Origin: Escherichia coli
Lineage (GTDB): Bacteria > Pseudomonadota > Gammaproteobacteria > Enterobacterales > Enterobacteriaceae
DNA: 64,000 nucleotides
Strand: one strand, 5' to 3'
NCBI RefSeq assembly: GCF_016903815.1
Contig: NZ_CP069973.1
Shown here: piece after piece, positions 22,499 to 64,000 of the stretch
How positions within the stretch are numbered: position 1 is the first letter of the stretch
Layout: the number at the start of each line of letters is the position of its first letter
Program-made: the position numbers and the translations under genes
The notes under the pieces: generated by a model
Told to the model about the DNA's origin: nothing
The model's database searches: none
Seen by the model: only the letters and a program-made list of their open reading frames with translations

Positions 22499-23044
<546 letters not shown>

Positions 23045-23053
23045 GAGAATTGC

Positions 23054-23845
23054 ATGAGCAGTAACTTCAGACATCAACTATTGAGTCTGTCGTTACTGGT
23101 TGGTATAGCGGCCCCCTGGGCCGCTTTTGCTCAGGCACCAATCAGTAGTGTCGGCTCAGGCTCGGTCGAAGACCGCGTCACTCAACTTGAGCGTATTTCA
23201 AATGCTCACAGCCAGCTTTTAACCCAACTCCAGCAACAACTCTCTGATAATCAATCCGATATTGATTCCCTGCGTGGCCAGATTCAGGAAAATCAGTATC
23301 AACTGAATCAGGTCGTGGAGCGGCAAAAGCAGATCCTGTTGCAGATCGACAGCCTCAGCAGCGGTGGTGCAGCGGCGCAATCAACCAGCGGTGATCAAAG
23401 CGGTGCGGCGGCATCAACGACGCCGACAGCTGATGCTGGTACTGCGAATGCTGGCGCGCCGGTGAAAAGCGGCGATGCAAACACGGATTACAATGCAGCA
23501 ATTGCGCTGGTGCAGGATAAATCCCGCCAGGATGACGCAATGGTGGCATTTCAGAATTTCATCAAAAATTACCCTGATTCAACTTACCTGCCAAACGCCA
23601 ATTATTGGCTGGGTCAGTTAAACTACAACAAGGGTAAAAAAGATGATGCGGCGTACTATTTTGCTTCGGTAGTAAAAAACTATCCGAAGTCACCAAAGGC
23701 TGCAGATGCGATGTTTAAAGTCGGCGTCATCATGCAGGACAAAGGTGACACCGCAAAAGCGAAAGCCGTATACCAGCAGGTTATCAGTAAATACCCTGGT
23801 ACTGATGGCGCTAAACAGGCACAAAAACGTCTGAACGCGATGTAA
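23054..23845 (+). CDS. cpoB: Cell division coordinator CpoB (YbgF), TPR protein
   Basis: 263 aa, signal peptide, coiled-coil and C-terminal TPR region; last gene of the tol-pal cluster. Confidence 0.95.
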   Translation: MSSNFRHQLLSLSLLVGIAAPWAAFAQAPISSVGSGSVEDRVTQLERISNAHSQLLTQLQQQLSDNQSDIDSLRGQIQENQYQLNQVVERQKQILLQIDSLSSGGAAAQSTSGDQSGAAASTTPTADAGTANAGAPVKSGDANTDYNAAIALVQDKSRQDDAMVAFQNFIKNYPDSTYLPNANYWLGQLNYNKGKKDDAAYYFASVVKNYPKSPKAADAMFKVGVIMQDKGDTAKAKAVYQQVISKYPGTDGAKQAQKRLNAM

Positions 23846-23851
23846 TGCATA

Positions 23852-23888
23852 ACACACGACCAGAAGTCGCATTATTTCTGGTCGTGTC
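23852..23888. terminator. Hairpin downstream of cpoB
   Basis: acacgaccagaa...ttctggtcgtgt inverted repeat just after the cpoB stop; no strong T-run. Confidence 0.5.
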
Positions 23889-24009
23889 GTGCGAATCATA
23901 AGCAGTTGAGTGATCTACATCGAAATTTTTGTTGCGCTCAAGTCTGAAATCAGTAATATATGCCGCCGTTGCCACGGGATATCAAACAAACCGAAAGCAA
24001 CGAAAAAGT

Positions 24010-24085
24010 GGGTCGTTAGCTCAGTTGGTAGAGCAGTTGACTTTTAATCAATTGGTCGCAGGTTCGAATCCTGCACGACCCACCA
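24010..24085 (+). tRNA. lysT: tRNA-Lys (anticodon UUU)
   Basis: GGGTCGTTAGCTCAGTTGGTAGAGCAGTTGACTTTTAATCAATTGGTCGCAGGTTCGAATCCTGCACGACCCACCA, 76 nt with encoded CCA. Confidence 0.97.
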
Positions 24086-24220
24086 ATCGCTAAGGTGGAA
24101 GCGGTAGTAAAACGTGAAGGATAACGTTGCGTCAGCAACGGCCCGAAGGGCGAGACGAAGTCGAGTCATCCTGCACGACCCACCACTAACCTAGTTAGTT
24201 GTAGTATCCAGCGTAGTATC

Positions 24221-24296
24221 GGGTGATTAGCTCAGCTGGGAGAGCACCTCCCTTACAAGGAGGGGGTCGGCGGTTCGATCCCGTCATCACCCACCA
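24221..24296 (+). tRNA. valT: tRNA-Val (anticodon UAC)
   Basis: GGGTGATTAGCTCAGCTGGGAGAGCACCTCCCTTACAAGGAGGGGGTCGGCGGTTCGATCCCGTCATCACCCACCA. Confidence 0.97.
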
Positions 24297-24298
24297 CC

Positions 24299-24374
24299 GG
24301 GTCGTTAGCTCAGTTGGTAGAGCAGTTGACTTTTAATCAATTGGTCGCAGGTTCGAATCCTGCACGACCCACCA
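24299..24374 (+). tRNA. lysW: tRNA-Lys (UUU)
   Basis: Identical to the tRNA-Lys at 24010; 2 nt after the preceding tRNA-Val. Confidence 0.97.
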
Positions 24375-24425
24375 CTAATTACGGTGGGTTCGGTGGAAGT
24401 AGTTTGTAGTATCCAGCGCAGTATC

Positions 24426-24501
24426 GGGTGATTAGCTCAGCTGGGAGAGCACCTCCCTTACAAGGAGGGGGTCGGCGGTTCGATCCCGTCATCACCCACC
24501 A
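24426..24501 (+). tRNA. valZ: tRNA-Val (UAC)
   Basis: Identical to the tRNA-Val at 24221. Confidence 0.97.
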
Positions 24502-24504
24502 CTC

Positions 24505-24580
24505 GGGTCGTTAGCTCAGTTGGTAGAGCAGTTGACTTTTAATCAATTGGTCGCAGGTTCGAATCCTGCACGACCCACCA
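24505..24580 (+). tRNA. lysY: tRNA-Lys (UUU)
   Basis: Identical tRNA-Lys sequence. Confidence 0.97.
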
Positions 24581-24726
24581 ATTTTAACATCAAACTCAGA
24601 TGTTAAGCGTGAAGGATAACGTTGCGCCGGCAACGGCCCGTAGGGCGAGCGAAGCGAGTCATCCTGCACGACCTACCAATTTTAAAGATTGGTTCCGAGT
24701 AGAAATCTTTCAGGTAACACCCGTAT

Positions 24727-24802
24727 GGGTCGTTAGCTCAGTTGGTAGAGCAGTTGACTTTTAATCAATTGGTCGCAGGTTCGAATCCTGCACGACCCAC
24801 CA
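24727..24802 (+). tRNA. lysZ: tRNA-Lys (UUU)
   Basis: Identical tRNA-Lys sequence. Confidence 0.97.
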
Positions 24803-24934
24803 ATTTAAAGGTGGTTACTGGTAGAGAACGTGAAGGATAACGTTGCGTTAGCAACGGCCCGAAGGGCGAGACGAAGTCGAGTCATCTTGCACGACCCACC
24901 ATCCTGAATGATTAAAGCAGCATAATCCCGCAAG

Positions 24935-25010
24935 GGGTCGTTAGCTCAGTTGGTAGAGCAGTTGACTTTTAATCAATTGGTCGCAGGTTCGAATCCTGCA
25001 CGACCCACCA
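24935..25010 (+). tRNA. lysQ: tRNA-Lys (UUU)
   Basis: Identical tRNA-Lys sequence; last tRNA of the operon. Confidence 0.97.
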
Positions 25011-25014
25011 ATGT

Positions 25015-25042
25015 AAAAAAGCGCCCTAAAGGCGCTTTTTTG
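25015..25042 (+). terminator. Rho-independent terminator of the lysT tRNA operon
   Basis: aaaaaagcgccctaaaggcgcttttttg directly after lysQ; an exact second copy lies at 25161-25187. Confidence 0.85.
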
Positions 25043-25353
25043 CTATCTGCGATACTCAAAGATTCGAACCTGCAGCAGGTTTGAGTTGAGCGCAGCGAAA
25101 CAACGGAGCCGCTCGCGGCGACGGCCCGAAGGGCGAGCGAAGCGAGTCATCCTGCACGACCCACCAATGTAAAAAAGCGCCCTAAAGGCGCTTTTTTGCT
25201 ATCAGGCATCTCTCAATTTCAATTCTTAACCCTGATGACATACTCCGCGCTTGCTGCGTAAACAACTCTACGTCGGAGGAATAAGACGCAAAGTGTGGCA
25301 TTCGTCATCTCATACGTAATTCGAGTGACTTTTCCCCACCATTCGACTATCTT

Positions 25354-37223: not shown

Positions 37224-38012
37224 TTAGCATAGCGTGGCGATAATCACGCTGTCGGCATTAAAGTAGGCCGTGACATTCTGTCCTTGCTGAAGAGAAGTCG
37301 CTTCATTTACCGGCACTGTGGCGCACAGTGTTTGCCCGTCGGGTAGCGCCATTAATACTTCGCACTGCTCTGCGCCGCGCTCAATATGACTAATAATACC
37401 CGGTAATTGGTTGTCGGCGTTTTGTGCGACCGCTTCGTCCTGAGTAATGCCTACCCACGGCGCTTTTAGTAATATCAACACTTCTTTGCCTTCATCCAGC
37501 CCCAGACGCGCGCCGCTTTGTGCGGTAATTGCGACTTTCAGGCGTGTTTTTCCGTCAGCCAGTAAGACATCAACATGCTGTTGAACGTCATCATGATCGC
37601 GGGCGGTGATGGTGCCAAACCATTGGTTACGGGCGCTGGTTTGCAGTGAAAAACGTGAGATCGCGGCCAGCAGGCTGTTCAGCGGCAGGGCGTCATCGTC
37701 ACTTAACACATCAAAGGCTTTTTGCTGGATTTGCGCCAGTAAGTCATAGAGCTGAATCAGTCGCTGACCATAGCGGGTCAGTACTGCGCCGCCGCCACCT
37801 TTACCGCCTGTTGCGCGCTCGACCAGAATATGCTCACTTAACTGATTCATCTCGTTAATGGCATCCCAGGCACTTTTATAGCTGATACCGGCATCTTTCG
37901 CTCCCTGGCTAATGGAACCGGAAAGCGCAATGTGTTTTAGTAGCGAAATGCGGCGCGGGTCGGCGAATAATTTTTGTTGGAGCTTAAGGGTGAGAAGGAT
38001 TTCGGCCTGCAT
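37224..38012 (-). CDS. modE: Molybdate-responsive transcriptional regulator ModE
   Basis: 262 aa, N-terminal HTH and tandem Mop domains. Confidence 0.95.
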   Translation of the reverse strand: MQAEILLTLKLQQKLFADPRRISLLKHIALSGSISQGAKDAGISYKSAWDAINEMNQLSEHILVERATGGKGGGGAVLTRYGQRLIQLYDLLAQIQQKAFDVLSDDDALPLNSLLAAISRFSLQTSARNQWFGTITARDHDDVQQHVDVLLADGKTRLKVAITAQSGARLGLDEGKEVLILLKAPWVGITQDEAVAQNADNQLPGIISHIERGAEQCEVLMALPDGQTLCATVPVNEATSLQQGQNVTAYFNADSVIIATLC

Positions 38013-38412: not shown

Positions 38413-38436
38413 CGTTATATTGACGCCTACATAACG
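38413..38436. promoter_or_regulatory. ModE operator in the modA promoter
   Basis: cgttatattgacgcctacataacg, matching the CGTTATATT-N-TATATAACG type ModE site, about 20 bp upstream of modA. Confidence 0.85.
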
Positions 38437-38455: not shown

Positions 38456-39229
38456 ATGGCTCGTAAATGGTTGAACTTGTTTGCCGGGGCGGCACTCTCT
38501 TTCGCTGTTGCTGGCAATGCACTGGCAGATGAAGGGAAAATCACGGTGTTCGCCGCCGCATCACTGACTAACGCAATGCAGAACATTGCTACGCAGTATA
38601 AAAAAGAGAAAGGCGTGGATGTGGTTTCTTCTTTCGCTTCGTCATCTACTTTGGCCCGTCAGATTGAAGCGGGTGCGCCTGCGGATCTGTTTATTTCTGC
38701 CGATCAGAAATGGATGGATTATGCGGTTGATAAAAAAGCGATCGATACAGCTACACGTCAGACACTGCTCGGCAATAGCCTGGTCGTTGTAGCACCGAAA
38801 GCCAGCGAGCAGAAAGATTTCACCATCGACAGCAAAACTAACTGGACTTCGCTGCTGAATGGCGGTCGCCTCGCGGTTGGCGATCCGGAACATGTCCCTG
38901 CTGGCATTTATGCAAAAGAAGCACTGCAAAAACTGGGCGCATGGGATACGCTCTCCCCGAAACTGGCTCCGGCGGAAGATGTTCGTGGCGCGCTGGCGTT
39001 GGTCGAACGCAATGAAGCGCCGCTGGGTATTGTTTACGGTTCTGACGCAGTTGCCAGCAAAGGGGTAAAAGTGGTTGCCACCTTCCCGGAAGATTCACAT
39101 AAAAAAGTGGAATATCCGGTTGCTGTTGTGGAAGGGCATAATAATGCGACAGTGATAGCATTTTATGATTATCTGAAGGGGCCGCAGGCTGCGGAAATCT
39201 TTAAACGTTACGGATTTACAACCAAGTAA
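38456..39229 (+). CDS. modA: Molybdate ABC transporter periplasmic binding protein
   Basis: 257 aa with signal peptide. Confidence 0.97.
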   Translation: MARKWLNLFAGAALSFAVAGNALADEGKITVFAAASLTNAMQNIATQYKKEKGVDVVSSFASSSTLARQIEAGAPADLFISADQKWMDYAVDKKAIDTATRQTLLGNSLVVVAPKASEQKDFTIDSKTNWTSLLNGGRLAVGDPEHVPAGIYAKEALQKLGAWDTLSPKLAPAEDVRGALALVERNEAPLGIVYGSDAVASKGVKVVATFPEDSHKKVEYPVAVVEGHNNATVIAFYDYLKGPQAAEIFKRYGFTTK

Positions 39230-56728: not shown

Positions 56729-58750
56729 ATGAGTAAACCGTTCAAACTGAATTCCGCTTTTAAACCTTCTGGCGATCAGCCAGAGGCGATTCGACGTCTC
56801 GAAGAGGGGCTGGAAGATGGCCTGGCGCACCAGACGTTACTTGGCGTGACTGGCTCCGGGAAAACCTTCACCATTGCCAATGTCATTGCTGATCTTCAGC
56901 GCCCTACCATGGTACTTGCGCCCAACAAAACGCTGGCGGCCCAGTTGTATGGCGAAATGAAAGAGTTCTTCCCGGAAAACGCGGTGGAATATTTCGTCTC
57001 CTACTACGACTACTATCAGCCGGAAGCCTATGTACCGAGTTCCGACACCTTCATTGAGAAAGATGCCTCGGTTAACGAACATATTGAACAGATGCGTTTG
57101 TCCGCCACCAAAGCGATGCTGGAGCGGCGTGATGTGGTTGTGGTGGCGTCTGTTTCCGCGATTTATGGTCTGGGCGATCCTGATTTATATCTCAAGATGA
57201 TGCTCCATCTCACGGTCGGCATGATTATCGATCAGCGCGCGATCCTGCGCCGACTGGCGGAGCTGCAATACGCTCGTAATGATCAGGCATTCCAGCGTGG
57301 TACTTTCCGCGTTCGTGGTGAGGTGATTGATATCTTCCCGGCAGAATCGGATGACATTGCACTTCGCGTGGAGCTGTTTGACGAGGAAGTGGAACGATTG
57401 TCGTTATTTGACCCGCTCACCGGGCAGATTGTTTCCACTATTCCACGTTTTACCATCTACCCGAAAACGCACTACGTCACGCCGCGCGAGCGCATCGTAC
57501 AGGCGATGGAAGAGATCAAAGAAGAACTGGCCGCCAGACGCAAAGTGCTGTTGGAGAACAACAAGTTGCTTGAAGAGCAGCGGCTGACCCAGCGTACCCA
57601 GTTTGATCTGGAGATGATGAACGAGCTGGGCTACTGTTCCGGGATTGAGAACTACTCGCGCTTCCTCTCCGGTCGTGGACCGGGTGAGCCACCGCCGACG
57701 CTGTTTGATTACCTGCCTGCCGATGGGCTGCTGGTGGTCGATGAATCACACGTCACCATTCCGCAAATTGGCGGCATGTATCGCGGTGACCGGGCGCGTA
57801 AAGAGACGCTGGTGGAGTACGGCTTCCGCCTGCCATCAGCGCTGGATAACCGTCCGCTGAAATTTGAAGAGTTCGAAGCATTAGCGCCGCAAACCATCTA
57901 TGTTTCGGCGACGCCGGGTAATTACGAGCTGGAAAAATCCGGCGGCGATGTGGTGGATCAGGTGGTGCGTCCAACCGGATTGCTTGACCCGATAATTGAA
58001 GTGCGGCCGGTGGCGACACAGGTTGATGATCTTCTTTCGGAGATTCGTCAGCGAGCGGCAATTAACGAACGCGTACTGGTTACAACTCTGACCAAGCGAA
58101 TGGCGGAAGATCTCACGGAATATCTCGAAGAACACGGCGAGCGCGTGCGTTATCTTCACTCCGATATCGACACCGTCGAGCGTATGGAGATTATCCGCGA
58201 CTTGCGTCTGGGTGAGTTCGACGTGCTGGTAGGGATCAACTTACTGCGCGAAGGTCTGGATATGCCGGAAGTGTCGCTGGTGGCGATCCTCGACGCTGAC
58301 AAAGAAGGCTTCCTACGTTCCGAACGTTCGTTGATCCAGACTATTGGTCGTGCGGCGCGTAACGTTAACGGTAAAGCGATTCTCTACGGCGATAAGATCA
58401 CCCCGTCAATGGCGAAAGCGATTGGCGAAACCGAACGTCGTCGCGAGAAACAGCAGAAGTACAACGAGGAACACGGTATTACGCCGCAGGGCTTGAACAA
58501 GAAAGTGGTCGATATCCTGGCGCTGGGGCAGAACATTGCTAAAACCAAAGCGAAGGGCAGAGGAAAATCGCGACCGATTGTTGAGCCGGATAATGTGCCG
58601 ATGGATATGTCGCCGAAAGCGTTACAGCAGAAAATCCATGAACTGGAAGGGCTGATGATGCAACACGCGCAAAATCTGGAGTTCGAAGAAGCGGCGCAAA
58701 TTCGTGACCAGTTGCATCAGCTGCGTGAGTTGTTTATTGCCGCGTCGTGA
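56729..58750 (+). CDS. uvrB: Excinuclease ABC subunit B
   Basis: 673 aa, helicase motifs including GVTGSGKT. Confidence 0.98.
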
Positions 58751-58757
58751 CAAGATG

Positions 58758-58786
58758 ACGAAGCCGGAATATTCTTCCGGCTTCGT
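58758..58786. terminator. Bidirectional hairpin terminator between uvrB and ybhK
   Basis: acgaagccggaa-tatt-cttccggcttcgt. Confidence 0.7.
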
Positions 58787-58787
58787 G

Positions 58788-59756
<969 letters not shown>

Positions 59757-59893
59757 TTAACCTGCCAATATTGAGGATACAAACTATTTTCTTCTACCTC
59801 TAAAGGACGATGCACGCTATGCCTCTCTGATGATGTATATCAAAGTAAAACCGCCATTTTCCCTTATTCTGTAGCGAAATAGCACGATCATGA

Positions 59894-59917
59894 CGCTATA
59901 TACATGATTACATAGCG
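59894..59917. promoter_or_regulatory. Putative ModE operator in the moaA promoter
   Basis: cgctatatacatgattacatagcg, a palindromic CGCTAT...ATAGCG site with an internal TATAT half-site. Confidence 0.6.
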
Positions 59918-59939
59918 AAAGTGTGGATGGTAAAAATCT

Positions 59940-60092
59940 CATTTACGCGCTAGTATCGGCTTAACCACTAAACACTCTAGCCTCTGCACCTGGGTCAACT
60001 GATACGGTGCTTTGGCCGTGACAATGCTCGTAAAGATTGCCACCAGGGCGAAGGAAGAAATGACTTCGCCTCCCGTATCTGGAAAGGTGTAC
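59940..60092 (+). ncRNA. Molybdenum cofactor (Moco) riboswitch in the moaA 5' leader
   Basis: About 150-nt structured leader directly upstream of the moaA start with the conserved ...gccuccc... segment adjacent to the RBS; position matches the described moaABCDE leader. Boundaries approximate. Confidence 0.6.
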
Positions 60093-61082
60093 ATGGCTTC
60101 ACAACTGACTGATGCATTTGCGCGTAAGTTTTACTACTTGCGCCTGTCGATTACTGATGTGTGTAACTTTCGTTGCACCTACTGCCTGCCGGATGGCTAC
60201 AAACCGAGCGGCGTCACCAATAAAGGCTTTCTTACCGTCGATGAAATTCGCCGGGTTACGCGCGCCTTTGCCAGTCTGGGCACCGAAAAAGTGCGCCTGA
60301 CAGGCGGTGAGCCGTCTTTACGCCGCGACTTTACCGATATCATCGCCGCTGTGCGGGAAAACGACGCTATCCGCCAGATTGCGGTCACCACCAATGGTTA
60401 CCGTCTGGAACGCGATGTGGCGAACTGGCGCGATGCGGGACTTACTGGCATCAACGTCAGCGTTGATAGCCTTGACGCTCGCCAGTTTCATGCCATTACC
60501 GGGCAGGATAAATTCAACCAGGTCATGGCAGGGATCGATGCTGCATTTGAGGCCGGTTTTGAGAAGGTCAAAGTCAATACCGTGCTGATGCGTGATGTTA
60601 ATCATCATCAGCTCGACACCTTTCTGAACTGGATCCAGCATCGCCCTATCCAGCTGCGTTTCATCGAATTGATGGAAACGGGCGAGGGCAGCGAGCTCTT
60701 CCGTAAGCATCACATCTCTGGTCAGGTTCTGCGTGACGAGCTACTGCGTCGCGGCTGGATCCACCAATTACGTCAACGCAGCGACGGTCCCGCGCAAGTC
60801 TTTTGTCATCCGGATTACGCCGGAGAGATTGGCCTTATCATGCCGTATGAAAAAGACTTCTGCGCCACTTGCAACCGCCTGCGCGTTTCCTCCATTGGTA
60901 AACTCCATCTCTGCCTGTTTGGTGAAGGCGGCGTTAACCTGCGCGATCTGCTGGAAGACGATACCCAGCAACAGGCGCTGGAAGCGCGTATTTCAGCGGC
61001 GCTGCGGGAGAAGAAACAGACCCATTTCCTGCACCAAAACAACACCGGTATTACGCAAAACTTATCGTACATTGGCGGCTAA
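60093..61082 (+). CDS. moaA: GTP 3',8-cyclase (radical SAM)
   Basis: [31 protein letters not shown]...; ORF track extends 27 codons upstream (60012), across the riboswitch. Confidence 0.97.
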
Positions 61083-61103
61083 AACGTCAAAAGGAGAGAT
61101 CAG

Positions 61104-61616
61104 ATGAGTCAGGTAAGCACTGAATTTATCCCGACCCGTATTGCTATTCTTACGGTTTCTAATCGTCGTGGTGAAGAAGACGATACCTCCGGTCACTATC
61201 TGCGCGATTCGGCGCAGGAAGCGGGCCATCACGTTGTCGATAAAGCCATTGTGAAAGAAAACCGCTACGCTATTCGCGCTCAGGTATCTGCGTGGATCGC
61301 CAGCGACGATGTACAAGTGGTATTGATTACGGGGGGGACTGGCCTGACGGAAGGAGATCAGGCTCCCGAAGCGCTGCTGCCGTTGTTCGACCGTGAAGTT
61401 GAAGGTTTTGGTGAAGTGTTCCGGATGTTGTCGTTCGAAGAGATTGGCACTTCCACGTTGCAATCTCGTGCGGTAGCGGGCGTCGCTAACAAAACGCTGA
61501 TTTTCGCCATGCCGGGTTCGACCAAAGCGTGCCGTACCGCATGGGAAAATATCATTGCGCCGCAGCTCGATGCCCGTACGCGTCCGTGTAATTTCCATCC
61601 ACATTTGAAGAAATAA
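61104..61616 (+). CDS. moaB: Molybdenum cofactor biosynthesis protein B
   Basis: 170 aa. Confidence 0.97.
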
Positions 61617-61618
61617 GT

Positions 61619-62104
61619 ATGTCGCAACTGACCCATATCAACGCCGCTGGCGAAGCGCACATGGTGGATGTCTCCGCCAAAGCGGAAACCGTGCGTGAAG
61701 CGCGCGCCGAAGCCTTTGTCACCATGCGCAGCGAGACGCTGGCGATGATTATTGATGGTCGCCACCACAAAGGCGACGTATTTGCCACTGCGCGTATCGC
61801 CGGTATTCAGGCGGCAAAACGCACCTGGGATCTGATCCCGCTGTGTCACCCGCTGATGCTCAGCAAAGTTGAAGTCAATTTACAGGCCGAGCCGGAGCAC
61901 AATCGGGTACGTATAGAAACCTTATGCCGCCTGACCGGGAAAACCGGTGTCGAAATGGAAGCGTTAACCGCGGCCTCCGTGGCGGCGCTGACCATTTATG
62001 ACATGTGCAAAGCGGTGCAAAAAGATATGGTAATTGGTCCGGTACGTTTGCTGGCGAAGAGTGGCGGCAAGTCGGGTGACTTTAAGGTGGAAGCGGATGA
62101 TTAA
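61619..62104 (+). CDS. moaC: Cyclic pyranopterin monophosphate synthase
   Basis: 161 aa. Confidence 0.97.
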
Positions 62105-62342
62105 AGTTCTTTTTTTCGCCCAGGTGCGCGAGTTGGTGGGAACAGATGCAACCGAAGTGGCTGCAGATTTCCCAACCGTTGAAGCGTTACGCCAACATCT
62201 GGCTGCGCAGAGCGATCGCTGGGCGCTGGCGCTGGAAGATGGCAAATTGCTGGCTGCCGTCAACCAGACGCTGGTGAGTTTTGACCATCCGCTGACTGAC
62301 GGCGACGAAGTGGCTTTCTTCCCGCCGGTAACCGGAGGTTAA
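62097..62342 (+). CDS. moaD: Molybdopterin synthase sulfur-carrier subunit
   Basis: [15 protein letters not shown]...PPVTGG, 81 aa with C-terminal GG; ORF track starts at an upstream in-frame Met (62034) inside moaC. Confidence 0.95.
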
Positions 62343-62343
62343 G

Positions 62344-62796
62344 ATGGCAGAAACCAAAATTGTTGTCGGCCCGCAGCCATTCAGCGTAGGAGAAGAGTAT
62401 CCGTGGCTGGCGGAGCGTGATGAAGACGGTGCGGTAGTCACCTTTACCGGTAAGGTGCGCAACCATAACCTTGGCGACAGCGTCAAAGCATTAACCCTCG
62501 AACACTATCCGGGGATGACTGAAAAAGCACTGGCAGAAATTGTCGATGAAGCGCGTAACCGCTGGCCGCTGGGGCGCGTCACGGTGATTCACCGCATCGG
62601 GGAATTATGGCCGGGCGATGAAATCGTTTTTGTCGGTGTCACCAGTGCGCATCGCAGCAGTGCGTTTGAAGCCGGGCAGTTTATTATGGATTATCTCAAA
62701 ACCCGCGCACCGTTCTGGAAGCGCGAAGCCACGCCGGAAGGCGACCGCTGGGTCGAAGCCCGGGAGAGCGATCAGCAGGCGGCAAAACGCTGGTAG
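62344..62796 (+). CDS. moaE: Molybdopterin synthase catalytic subunit
   Basis: 150 aa. Confidence 0.97.
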   Translation: MAETKIVVGPQPFSVGEEYPWLAERDEDGAVVTFTGKVRNHNLGDSVKALTLEHYPGMTEKALAEIVDEARNRWPLGRVTVIHRIGELWPGDEIVFVGVTSAHRSSAFEAGQFIMDYLKTRAPFWKREATPEGDRWVEARESDQQAAKRW

Positions 62797-62932
62797 TTTT
62801 TTGTTAGCCGGATAAGGCACAGCTGCGTCCGGCAATTTCACCGCTCAGTACATGTGTTTACGCTGCGTCGATGCACAGCCTCATCATTTTGCAGTATCCT
62901 TAAGATATTCCTTATATCTTCAGGAGATCGTC

Positions 62933-63637
62933 ATGGACAGATTCCCACGTTCTGATTCAATTGTACAACTCCGGGCTGGCTTGCAAACTTATATGGCGCA
63001 AGTCTATGGCTGGATGACCGTTGGCTTGTTGCTGACCGCATTTGTTGCCTGGTATGCGGCTAATTCCGCGGCCGTGATGGAGCTGTTGTTCACTAACCGT
63101 GTCTTTTTAATCGGTCTGATCATCGCGCAATTAGCATTGGTTATTGTGTTATCAGCGATGATTCAAAAGCTGAGCGCAGGTGTAACGACGATGCTCTTTA
63201 TGCTTTATTCGGCGCTGACGGGTCTTACGCTTTCCAGTATTTTCATTGTCTATACCGCTGCTTCTATCGCCAGTACTTTCGTCGTTACTGCCGGGATGTT
63301 TGGCGCAATGAGCCTGTACGGTTACACCACGAAGCGCGATCTAAGCGGCTTTGGCAATATGCTGTTTATGGCGTTAATCGGCATTGTGCTGGCATCGCTG
63401 GTCAACTTCTGGCTGAAAAGCGAAGCATTGATGTGGGCAGTCACCTACATCAGCGTGATTGTCTTTGTCGGATTGACGGCGTATGACACTCAGAAATTGA
63501 AAAATATGGGTGAGCAGATTGATACCCGCGACACGTCGAACCTGCGCAAATATTCCATTCTTGGCGCGTTAACCTTGTATCTGGACTTCATCAACCTGTT
63601 CCTGATGTTGCTGCGGATCTTCGGCAACCGCCGTTAA
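62933..63637 (+). CDS. ybhL: BAX inhibitor-1/YccA-family inner membrane protein YbhL
   Basis: MDRFPRSDSIVQLRAGLQTYMAQVYGWMTVGLL...; start trimmed from ORF 62852. Confidence 0.92.
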   Translation: MDRFPRSDSIVQLRAGLQTYMAQVYGWMTVGLLLTAFVAWYAANSAAVMELLFTNRVFLIGLIIAQLALVIVLSAMIQKLSAGVTTMLFMLYSALTGLTLSSIFIVYTAASIASTFVVTAGMFGAMSLYGYTTKRDLSGFGNMLFMALIGIVLASLVNFWLKSEALMWAVTYISVIVFVGLTAYDTQKLKNMGEQIDTRDTSNLRKYSILGALTLYLDFINLFLMLLRIFGNRR

Positions 63638-63654
63638 TTCTTTTTCACCATCAA

Positions 63655-63682
63655 TATCCCGGCCATGTGTCGGGATTTTTTT
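63655..63682 (+). terminator. Rho-independent terminator after ybhL
   Basis: atcccgg-ccatgtgt-cgggattttttt. Confidence 0.7.
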
Positions 63683-63684
63683 GT

Positions 63685-64000
63685 GCACAGAAAACCCCCA
63701 GCTAGGCTGGGGGTTCCGGAAAGCTTTCAGCTTTGAGCCAGTTATTAAAACCCCTTTTGATTTGTTAAAACACCTTGCGGTCTGGCAACTGCAAGTGTCA
63801 AACAAGAAATCAAAAGGGGGTCCCAATGGGGAACGAAAAGAGCTTAGCGCACACCCGATGGAACTGTAAATATCACATAGTTTTTGCGCCAAAATACCGA
63901 AGACAGGTGTTCTACAGAGAGAAGCGTAGAGCAATAGGCAGTATTTTGAGAAAGCTGTGTGAGTGGAAAAGCGTACGGATTCTGGAAGCTGAATGCTGTG
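63685..64000 (+). mobile_element. tnpA: IS200/IS605-family insertion sequence, left end plus 5' part of tnpA (continues beyond window end)
   Basis: Terminal hairpin aaaacccccagc-tagg-ctgggggtt at 63691-63715; a second inverted repeat (63751-63765 with 63803-63820) that would sequester the aaaggggg RBS; ORF from ATG 63826 translating MGNEKSLAHTRWNCKYHIVFAPKYRRQVFYREKRRAIGSILRKLCEWKSVRILEAEC, the conserved N-terminus of IS200 Y1 (HUH) transposases. Left boundary approximate. Confidence 0.8.

Follow-up and report, generated by a model that had tools for sequence, protein, structure and literature searches.

The window analysed here is a stretch of 64,000 nucleotides of Escherichia coli DNA (contig NZ_CP069973.1 of RefSeq assembly GCF_016903815.1). 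The region under study is the divergent intergenic region between yvcK/ybhK, which is encoded on the minus strand and ends at 59697 in RefSeq, and moaA on the plus strand. A 501-base query across this region shows 100% identity to E. coli strain 7/2, which places the window in the E. coli chromosome. The locus was found in 5,424 of the 5,426 complete E. coli genomes, and the annotated features beneath the match are the riboswitch and moaA. In the RefSeq annotation of strain 7/2, moaA is followed by moaB, moaC, moaD, moaE and ybhL, and the gene order in K-12 is the same. The five moa genes all lie on the plus strand: moaA (GTP 3',8-cyclase) at 60093-61082 with the start codon ATG at 60093-60095, moaB at 61104-61616, moaC at 61619-62104, moaD at 62097-62342 and moaE at 62344-62796. 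The moaABCDE operon makes the pterin part of the molybdenum cofactor (Moco). The gene of the regulator that reads the operator upstream of moaA, modE, is located in the same window (37224-38012, minus strand) and acts in trans. The window also contains acrZ, modABC and the modA operator (38413-38436), which has acrZ and modE as neighbours, so that modE, the classical target repressed by ModE and the activated target moaA all fall within 23 kb. The window coordinates of modE and modA equal the record coordinates minus 795795.

Several other features of the window were recorded. Directly after ybhL there is an IS200-type element (window 63693-64000), at the place where K-12 has ybhM. The Rfam family STnc490, an Hfq-binding RNA, matches 63693-63816 with 146 bits, immediately upstream of the IS200C tnpA gene, which starts at 63826 and runs past the window end. 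Of the 5,426 complete E. coli genomes, only 96 have the junction between ybhL and IS200; in strain 7/2 the query matches at 22 places. Further upstream (window 22945-25166), other matches reach the gathering level of Rfam: 22945-23083 matches the CpoB/ybgF thermometer with 142 bits, and 24010-25007 holds seven clustered tRNAs with four RtT repeats interspersed among them.

The original prediction, made from the nucleotide sequence, described the interval 59894-60092 as a moaA leader with a palindromic ModE-type site and a structured 5' UTR resembling the Moco riboswitch. All the parts it described are present; position 60092 is indeed the last leader base, but the RNA motif continues to 60105. 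In a comparison of 58000-64000 with the complete Rfam set (4,227 families, permissive filters), the Moco RNA motif (RF01055, Molybdenum/Tungsten riboswitch aptamer) matched 59961-60105 on the plus strand with 103.4 bits, compared to a gathering score of 36, at an E-value of 1.1e-25 and over model positions 1-135 of 135. The scan of the whole window gave the identical match. The 'molybdenum cofactor riboswitch' that RefSeq annotates in strain 7/2 maps to the same interval, 59961-60105. The motif sits directly upstream of moaABCDE and overlaps the moaA start by 13 nt of coding sequence. The moaA Moco riboswitch of K-12 (RF01055; Regulski et al. 2008, PMC2408646) occupies the same locus and is identical base for base over 59962-60105. 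The two also share the context ybhK/yvcK - moaABCDE - ybhL, the paired elements P1 to P5 including P3, the GAAA tetraloop and a ribosome-binding site (RBS) within P1. The predicted riboswitch is borne out by the family match, the RefSeq annotation and the K-12 comparison alike.

The aptamer was laid out according to the pair list from the RF01055 alignment, and all elements are on the plus strand. P1 is formed by 59963-59977 with 60086-60099. P2 is a hairpin with an internal loop (59980-60016; 59980-59996 with 60001-60016), and P3 is a hairpin (60018-60043) of five pairs, 60018-60022 with 60039-60043, with a 16-nt loop. P4 (60046-60056 with 60061-60071) was also detected as inverted repeat I2 and carries the GAAA tetraloop at 60057-60060, while P5 consists of 60072-60073 with 60081-60082. 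Standard pairs make up 34 of the 41 pairs in the window RNA. By the presence of P3, the criterion given in PMC2408646, the window RNA is, as judged from its sequence, of the Moco type. The GAAA tetraloop of P4 and its receptor in P2 are part of the published architecture of five paired elements, in which the E. coli RBS lies within P1 (Regulski et al. 2008, PMC2408646). At the receptor position in P2 the window RNA reads CCUGGG/UACGG, which deviates from the canonical 11-nt motif CCUAAG/UAUGG, and a docking contact of the P4 GAAA loop can therefore not be asserted from sequence.

The CCUCCC element that had been predicted beside the RBS was located at 60069-60074, six bases before the RBS purine tract GGAAAGG at 60081-60087. 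It joins the last part of the 3' strand of P4 to the 5' strand of P5, and the two Cs at 60072-60073 form pairs with the Gs at 60081-60082 that open the purine tract. This tract and the P1 3' strand GGUGUA (60086-60091) constitute the expression platform at 60081-60091, and the AUG at 60093-60095 is bracketed by the outer P1 pairs. Because the RBS is taken up in P5 and P1 and the AUG is bracketed by P1, the folded aptamer would occlude the translation-initiation region, in line with the OFF-switch logic of the literature. Two further layers of post-transcriptional control have been published for this leader. Translation of moaA is activated by CsrA, which has two binding sites in the aptamer (PMC7652899; PMC4347634), and moaA is one of the genes for which Adams et al. 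2021 report a Rho-dependent 3' end located in the 5' UTR or the ORF (PMC7815308). The leader contains exactly two GGA motifs, one within P4 (60053-60055) and one within the RBS tract (60081-60083), and these are probably the CsrA sites.

A comparative test of the structure was built without reuse of the Rfam alignment. The core pattern CCTCCCNTNNNTGGAAAGG pulled 120 stretches from contigs representing one genome per species, and a covariance model was made from the E. coli sequence and structure alone. This model matched 60 among the 80 loci listed, and the resulting alignment of 60 RNAs (loci L004-L083) spans many phyla, with members from Vibrio, Aeromonas, Chloroflexi, Bacillota, Deltaproteobacteria and others. 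In the 60 relatives, 89.6% of the pair cells hold standard pairs; sliding the 3' partners by 1-3 columns lowers this to 36-43%. The value of 89.6% is somewhat inflated, since the relatives were aligned by fitting to the model and the search pattern had fixed P5 and the base of P4. The covariation score is 0.496 versus approximately 0.07 for the control, changes on both sides were found at 33 of the 41 pairs, and on four of five measures none of 500 shuffles reached the observed value. P1 helices 1-3 are 84-88% paired with compensatory changes in seven of nine pairs, and all 14 pairs of P2 have changed on both sides across the relatives. The GAAA tetraloop of P4 is retained in 57 of the 60. CCUCCC is invariant among the relatives, but it is part of the search pattern, which makes its invariance uninformative.

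Thermodynamic folding was discarded as evidence for the structure. The minimum free energy (MFE) of 59961-60105 is -42.0 kcal/mol with a z-score of only -1.57, and the corresponding fold differs from the Rfam structure, so that the support for the structure is comparative. The consensus fold of the aptamer reaches -26.6 kcal/mol, or -33.2 kcal/mol when constrained, and the predicted P1 pair probability in the unliganded ensemble is about 0.01. The MFE fold contains an alternative helix between the Shine-Dalgarno region (60085-60091) and the P2 5' strand (59985-59991). As a conserved alternative state this helix was rejected: in the 60 relatives it is 64.1% paired compared to a shuffled mean of 63.9%, and its covariation score is 0.089 compared to 0.086.

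P3 is present in 30 of the 60 relatives and absent from the other 30. The P3-less Moco-motif RNAs, which have been proposed to be of the tungsten-cofactor type, have the junction core, P1, P2, P4 and P5 in common with the window RNA and differ from it in lacking P3. Several genomes have more than one copy of the motif, among them a Dehalococcoidales MAG (L031-L034) and Syntrophomonas sp. UBA5288 (L058), where two matches lie on one contig. The moaA leader of Citrobacter sp. FP75 carries a 24-nt insertion, AATGTACTCGACGTATGACGAGTA (approximately L070:1712-1735), which is itself a small hairpin (TACTCG...CGAGTA). Within P1 it interrupts the 5' strand, separating the outer from the inner pairs; otherwise the aptamer is nearly identical to that of E. 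coli.

With the RNA element placed in its family, the reading that competes best with a Moco riboswitch concerns the effector. In-line probing fits the structural model of the motif, and with the P3 mutants M1 and M2 of the identical K-12 RNA, repression was lost upon disruption and regained upon restoration (PMC2408646). Everyone infers direct binding of Moco to the RNA. In 2008 this binding could not be shown, as the instability of Moco precluded a direct test (PMC2408646), a 2024 paper still describes the exact Moco-associated regulating metabolite as unidentified (PMC10845959), and our literature search found no solved structure or binding study. In addition, the unliganded aptamer fold is thermodynamically unfavoured, so some stabilising partner is needed. 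These points favour a reading in which the RNA element is real and its effector is an unidentified protein or a pterin intermediate other than mature Moco. Against this reading speak the hallmarks of a metabolite aptamer, namely the highly conserved multi-stem junction and the covarying stems, and its occurrence in many phyla, which are unlikely to share one protein factor. Published genetics moreover puts the effector within Moco biosynthesis; repression by the leader requires that pathway, and whether P3 is present or absent goes along with the use of Moco versus the tungsten cofactor (PMC2408646). We consider a non-Moco effector of this kind very unlikely. That the aptamer may bind no mature Moco directly, and that the effector is a pterin intermediate or a protein-cofactor complex, is quite unlikely in our judgement. 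Direct binding between Moco and the RNA is the only question that the present results touch, and sequence analysis cannot advance it. The reading of the leader as a Moco riboswitch is retained below.

A smaller matter is raised by the strain itself. A comparison with K-12 MG1655 across 59757-60110 (354 nt) shows three SNPs (window/K-12): 59826 T/C, 59947 G/A and 59961 T/A. None falls inside 59962-60105 and two of the three lie in the core of the proximal promoter S1, where the G at 59947 is in the spacer and the T at 59961, at approximately -1, is also the first position of the aptamer model. K-12, E. albertii and Citrobacter all have A at both 59947 and 59961, which makes the window alleles derived. 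The haplotype 59947G/59961T is a minority one (95 of 5,422 genomes); this number is close to that of the IS200 junction, and the two probably mark one lineage. The haplotype may shift the strength of S1 or the 5' end of its transcript, although this is a much smaller possibility than a non-Moco effector.

According to the original prediction, the extended moaA ORF that begins at 60012 runs through the leader and should not be taken as coding. The frame is indeed open from TTG 60012 to ATG 60093 (27 codons, 81 nt), also in E. albertii and Citrobacter, which is what would speak for a MoaA with a 27-residue N-terminal extension and for conservation of the leader as protein sequence. Residue 32 of the extended ORF, corresponding to residue 5 of a protein started at ATG 60093, is where the full-length alignment to the MoaA equivalog TIGR02666 (positions 1-336) begins, and RefSeq uses this ATG as the moaA start in both K-12 and strain 7/2. 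In the coding sequence, 73 of 82 substitutions relative to E. albertii and 142 of 168 relative to Citrobacter fall on third codon positions, and this bias begins at the ATG. The 81-nt extension has one of three and one of nine substitutions, respectively, at third positions, lacks the bias and is more conserved than the gene, and the stretch matches a structured-RNA model with an E-value of 1e-25. moaA starts at ATG 60093, and the extension from TTG 60012 is, as had been predicted, non-coding; a coding extension is effectively refuted and its remaining probability is negligible.

The ModE operator spans 59894-59917 and reads CGCTATAT-N8-ACATAGCG, or in full CGCTATAT-ACATGATT-ACATAGCG; it contains TATAT-N7-TACAT. 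It was detected as inverted repeat I1 (CGCTATATA / TACATAGCG). The pattern CGYTATAT-N8-ACATARCG, searched with at most 2 mismatches, occurs at two places in the 64 kb (four matches counting both strands) versus 0.03 expected by chance, and these are the moaA and modA sites only. TATAT-N7-TAYAT is likewise found twice in the 64 kb, at the same two sites, versus 0.08 expected. With the modA ATG at 38456, 20 bp downstream, the modA site (CGTTATAT-N8-ACATAACG, 38413-38436) is the classical ModE operator and serves as an internal positive control. ModE represses at modA. The two sites have the form of an 8-N8-8 palindrome, CGYTATAT-N8-ACATARCG, with TATAT-N7-TACAT in common and differ in placement: the modA operator is 20 bp from the start codon, whereas the moaA site is just upstream of a -35 element and activates there. 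The published E. coli ModE consensus is ATCGNTATATA-N6-TATATANCGAT (PMC545781), and the moaA site matches 15 of the 16 core positions of this consensus, also written CGNTATATA-N6-TATATANCG.

Conservation and literature agree with this assignment. K-12 and E. albertii carry the identical site sequence. Citrobacter sp. FP75 has symmetric changes in the two half-sites that move the consensus to the opposite strand, as would be expected of a palindrome bound by a dimer and kept under selection. A ModE site is placed at the proximal moa promoter, S1, by Anderson et al. 2000 as cited in PMC2408646, and for K-12 that work is reported to show ModE binding that depends on molybdate and activates transcription. 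AT-rich palindromes are common in promoter regions, but a chance inverted repeat or a site of another regulator is extremely unlikely given the low chance expectation of the pattern, the consensus match, the symmetric half-site swap in a conserved site, the published ModE site at S1 and the modE gene in the same window. The predicted palindromic ModE-type site thus holds. It is not part of the S1 leader, as had been suggested, but a DNA control element upstream of the S1 promoter that is transcribed only within the longer S2 transcript. An 8-nt direct repeat, TAGCGAAA, is found at 59872-59879, at the inferred S2 start, and 41 nt away at 59913-59920, at the right edge of the palindrome; it may be due to chance.

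Both promoters are on the plus strand, and their positions are anchored by published data. A generic sigma-70 scan of 59650-60150 returned no promoter, and the start sites therefore rest on the literature. The S1 leader up to the moaA start codon has a length of 131 nt according to Anderson et al. 2000, as cited in PMC2408646, which puts the S1 start near 59962. The structured nature of the leader had been predicted correctly; its predicted length of approximately 150 nt does not agree with the published 131 nt. The putative S1 elements (59928-59962) are a weak -35, TGGTAA at 59928-59933 (three of six positions), and a -10, TAGTAT at 59951-59956 (four of six), separated by a spacer of 17 nt, and this candidate -35 follows the end of the ModE site at a distance of 10 bp. 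The distal promoter S2 is described as FNR-dependent and located at -87 relative to S1 (Anderson et al. 2000, cited in PMC2408646). Its candidate -10 is TATTCT at 59865-59870, with a start at about 59875 (±3 nt) and essentially no -35. The empty promoter scan and the poor -35 elements agree with the activator dependence of S1 and S2.

Upstream of S2, an FNR-type box, ATGAT-GTAT-ATCAA (ATGATGTATATCAA), was noted at 59830-59843 with nine of ten matches to TTGAT-N4-ATCAA. Measured from the inferred S2 start, it is centred 38.5 to 41.5 bp upstream, compared to about 41.5 bp for a class II-type arrangement. By count, the box is not significant, with five matches at ≤ 1 mismatch versus 2.5 expected in the window. 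It forms a conserved island in E. albertii and Citrobacter with diverged flanks, and the literature and this conservation make it a candidate FNR box.

The transcript from S2 was also considered for a function of its own. Its MFE fold predicts 29 pairs between the 87-nt extension specific to S2, which contains the RNA of the ModE operator, and the moaA translation-initiation region. The energy of this duplex is no better than that of dinucleotide shuffles, as the fraction at least as stable is 0.50 for E. coli, 0.25 for E. albertii and 0.66 for Citrobacter, and the pairing was rejected as a chance result.

We are highly confident that this is the region from which E. coli moaABCDE is controlled in three layers, by FNR- and ModE-dependent promoters combined with the Moco riboswitch. 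In the proposed mechanism, the weak distal promoter S2 (start at about 59875) would depend on FNR bound at 59830-59843, and the weak proximal promoter S1 (start at about 59962) would be activated by molybdate-loaded ModE at 59894-59917, upstream of its poor -35. Transcripts from both promoters would carry the Moco aptamer of 59961-60105, a five-helix junction with the P4 GAAA tetraloop. When the cofactor is plentiful, the aptamer would fold, P5 and P1 would pair the RBS at 60081-60091 with the AUG bracketed, and moaA translation would be blocked, i.e. an OFF switch. CsrA, at two aptamer sites that are probably the two GGA motifs, would counteract this block and activate translation, as the literature reports.

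The moaA control region, a ModE site followed by a Moco riboswitch over the moaA RBS, is an ordinary one that is already well known and annotated in RefSeq. In a genome scan, the region can be annotated confidently as a ModE operator and a Moco riboswitch, with moaA starting at 60093 and not at the start of the extended ORF. The present results leave the known picture unchanged: the region is a textbook case of layered control, where oxygen, through FNR, and molybdate, through ModE, set the making of the mRNA, and the cofactor, through the riboswitch, sets the translation of moaA, with CsrA modulating.
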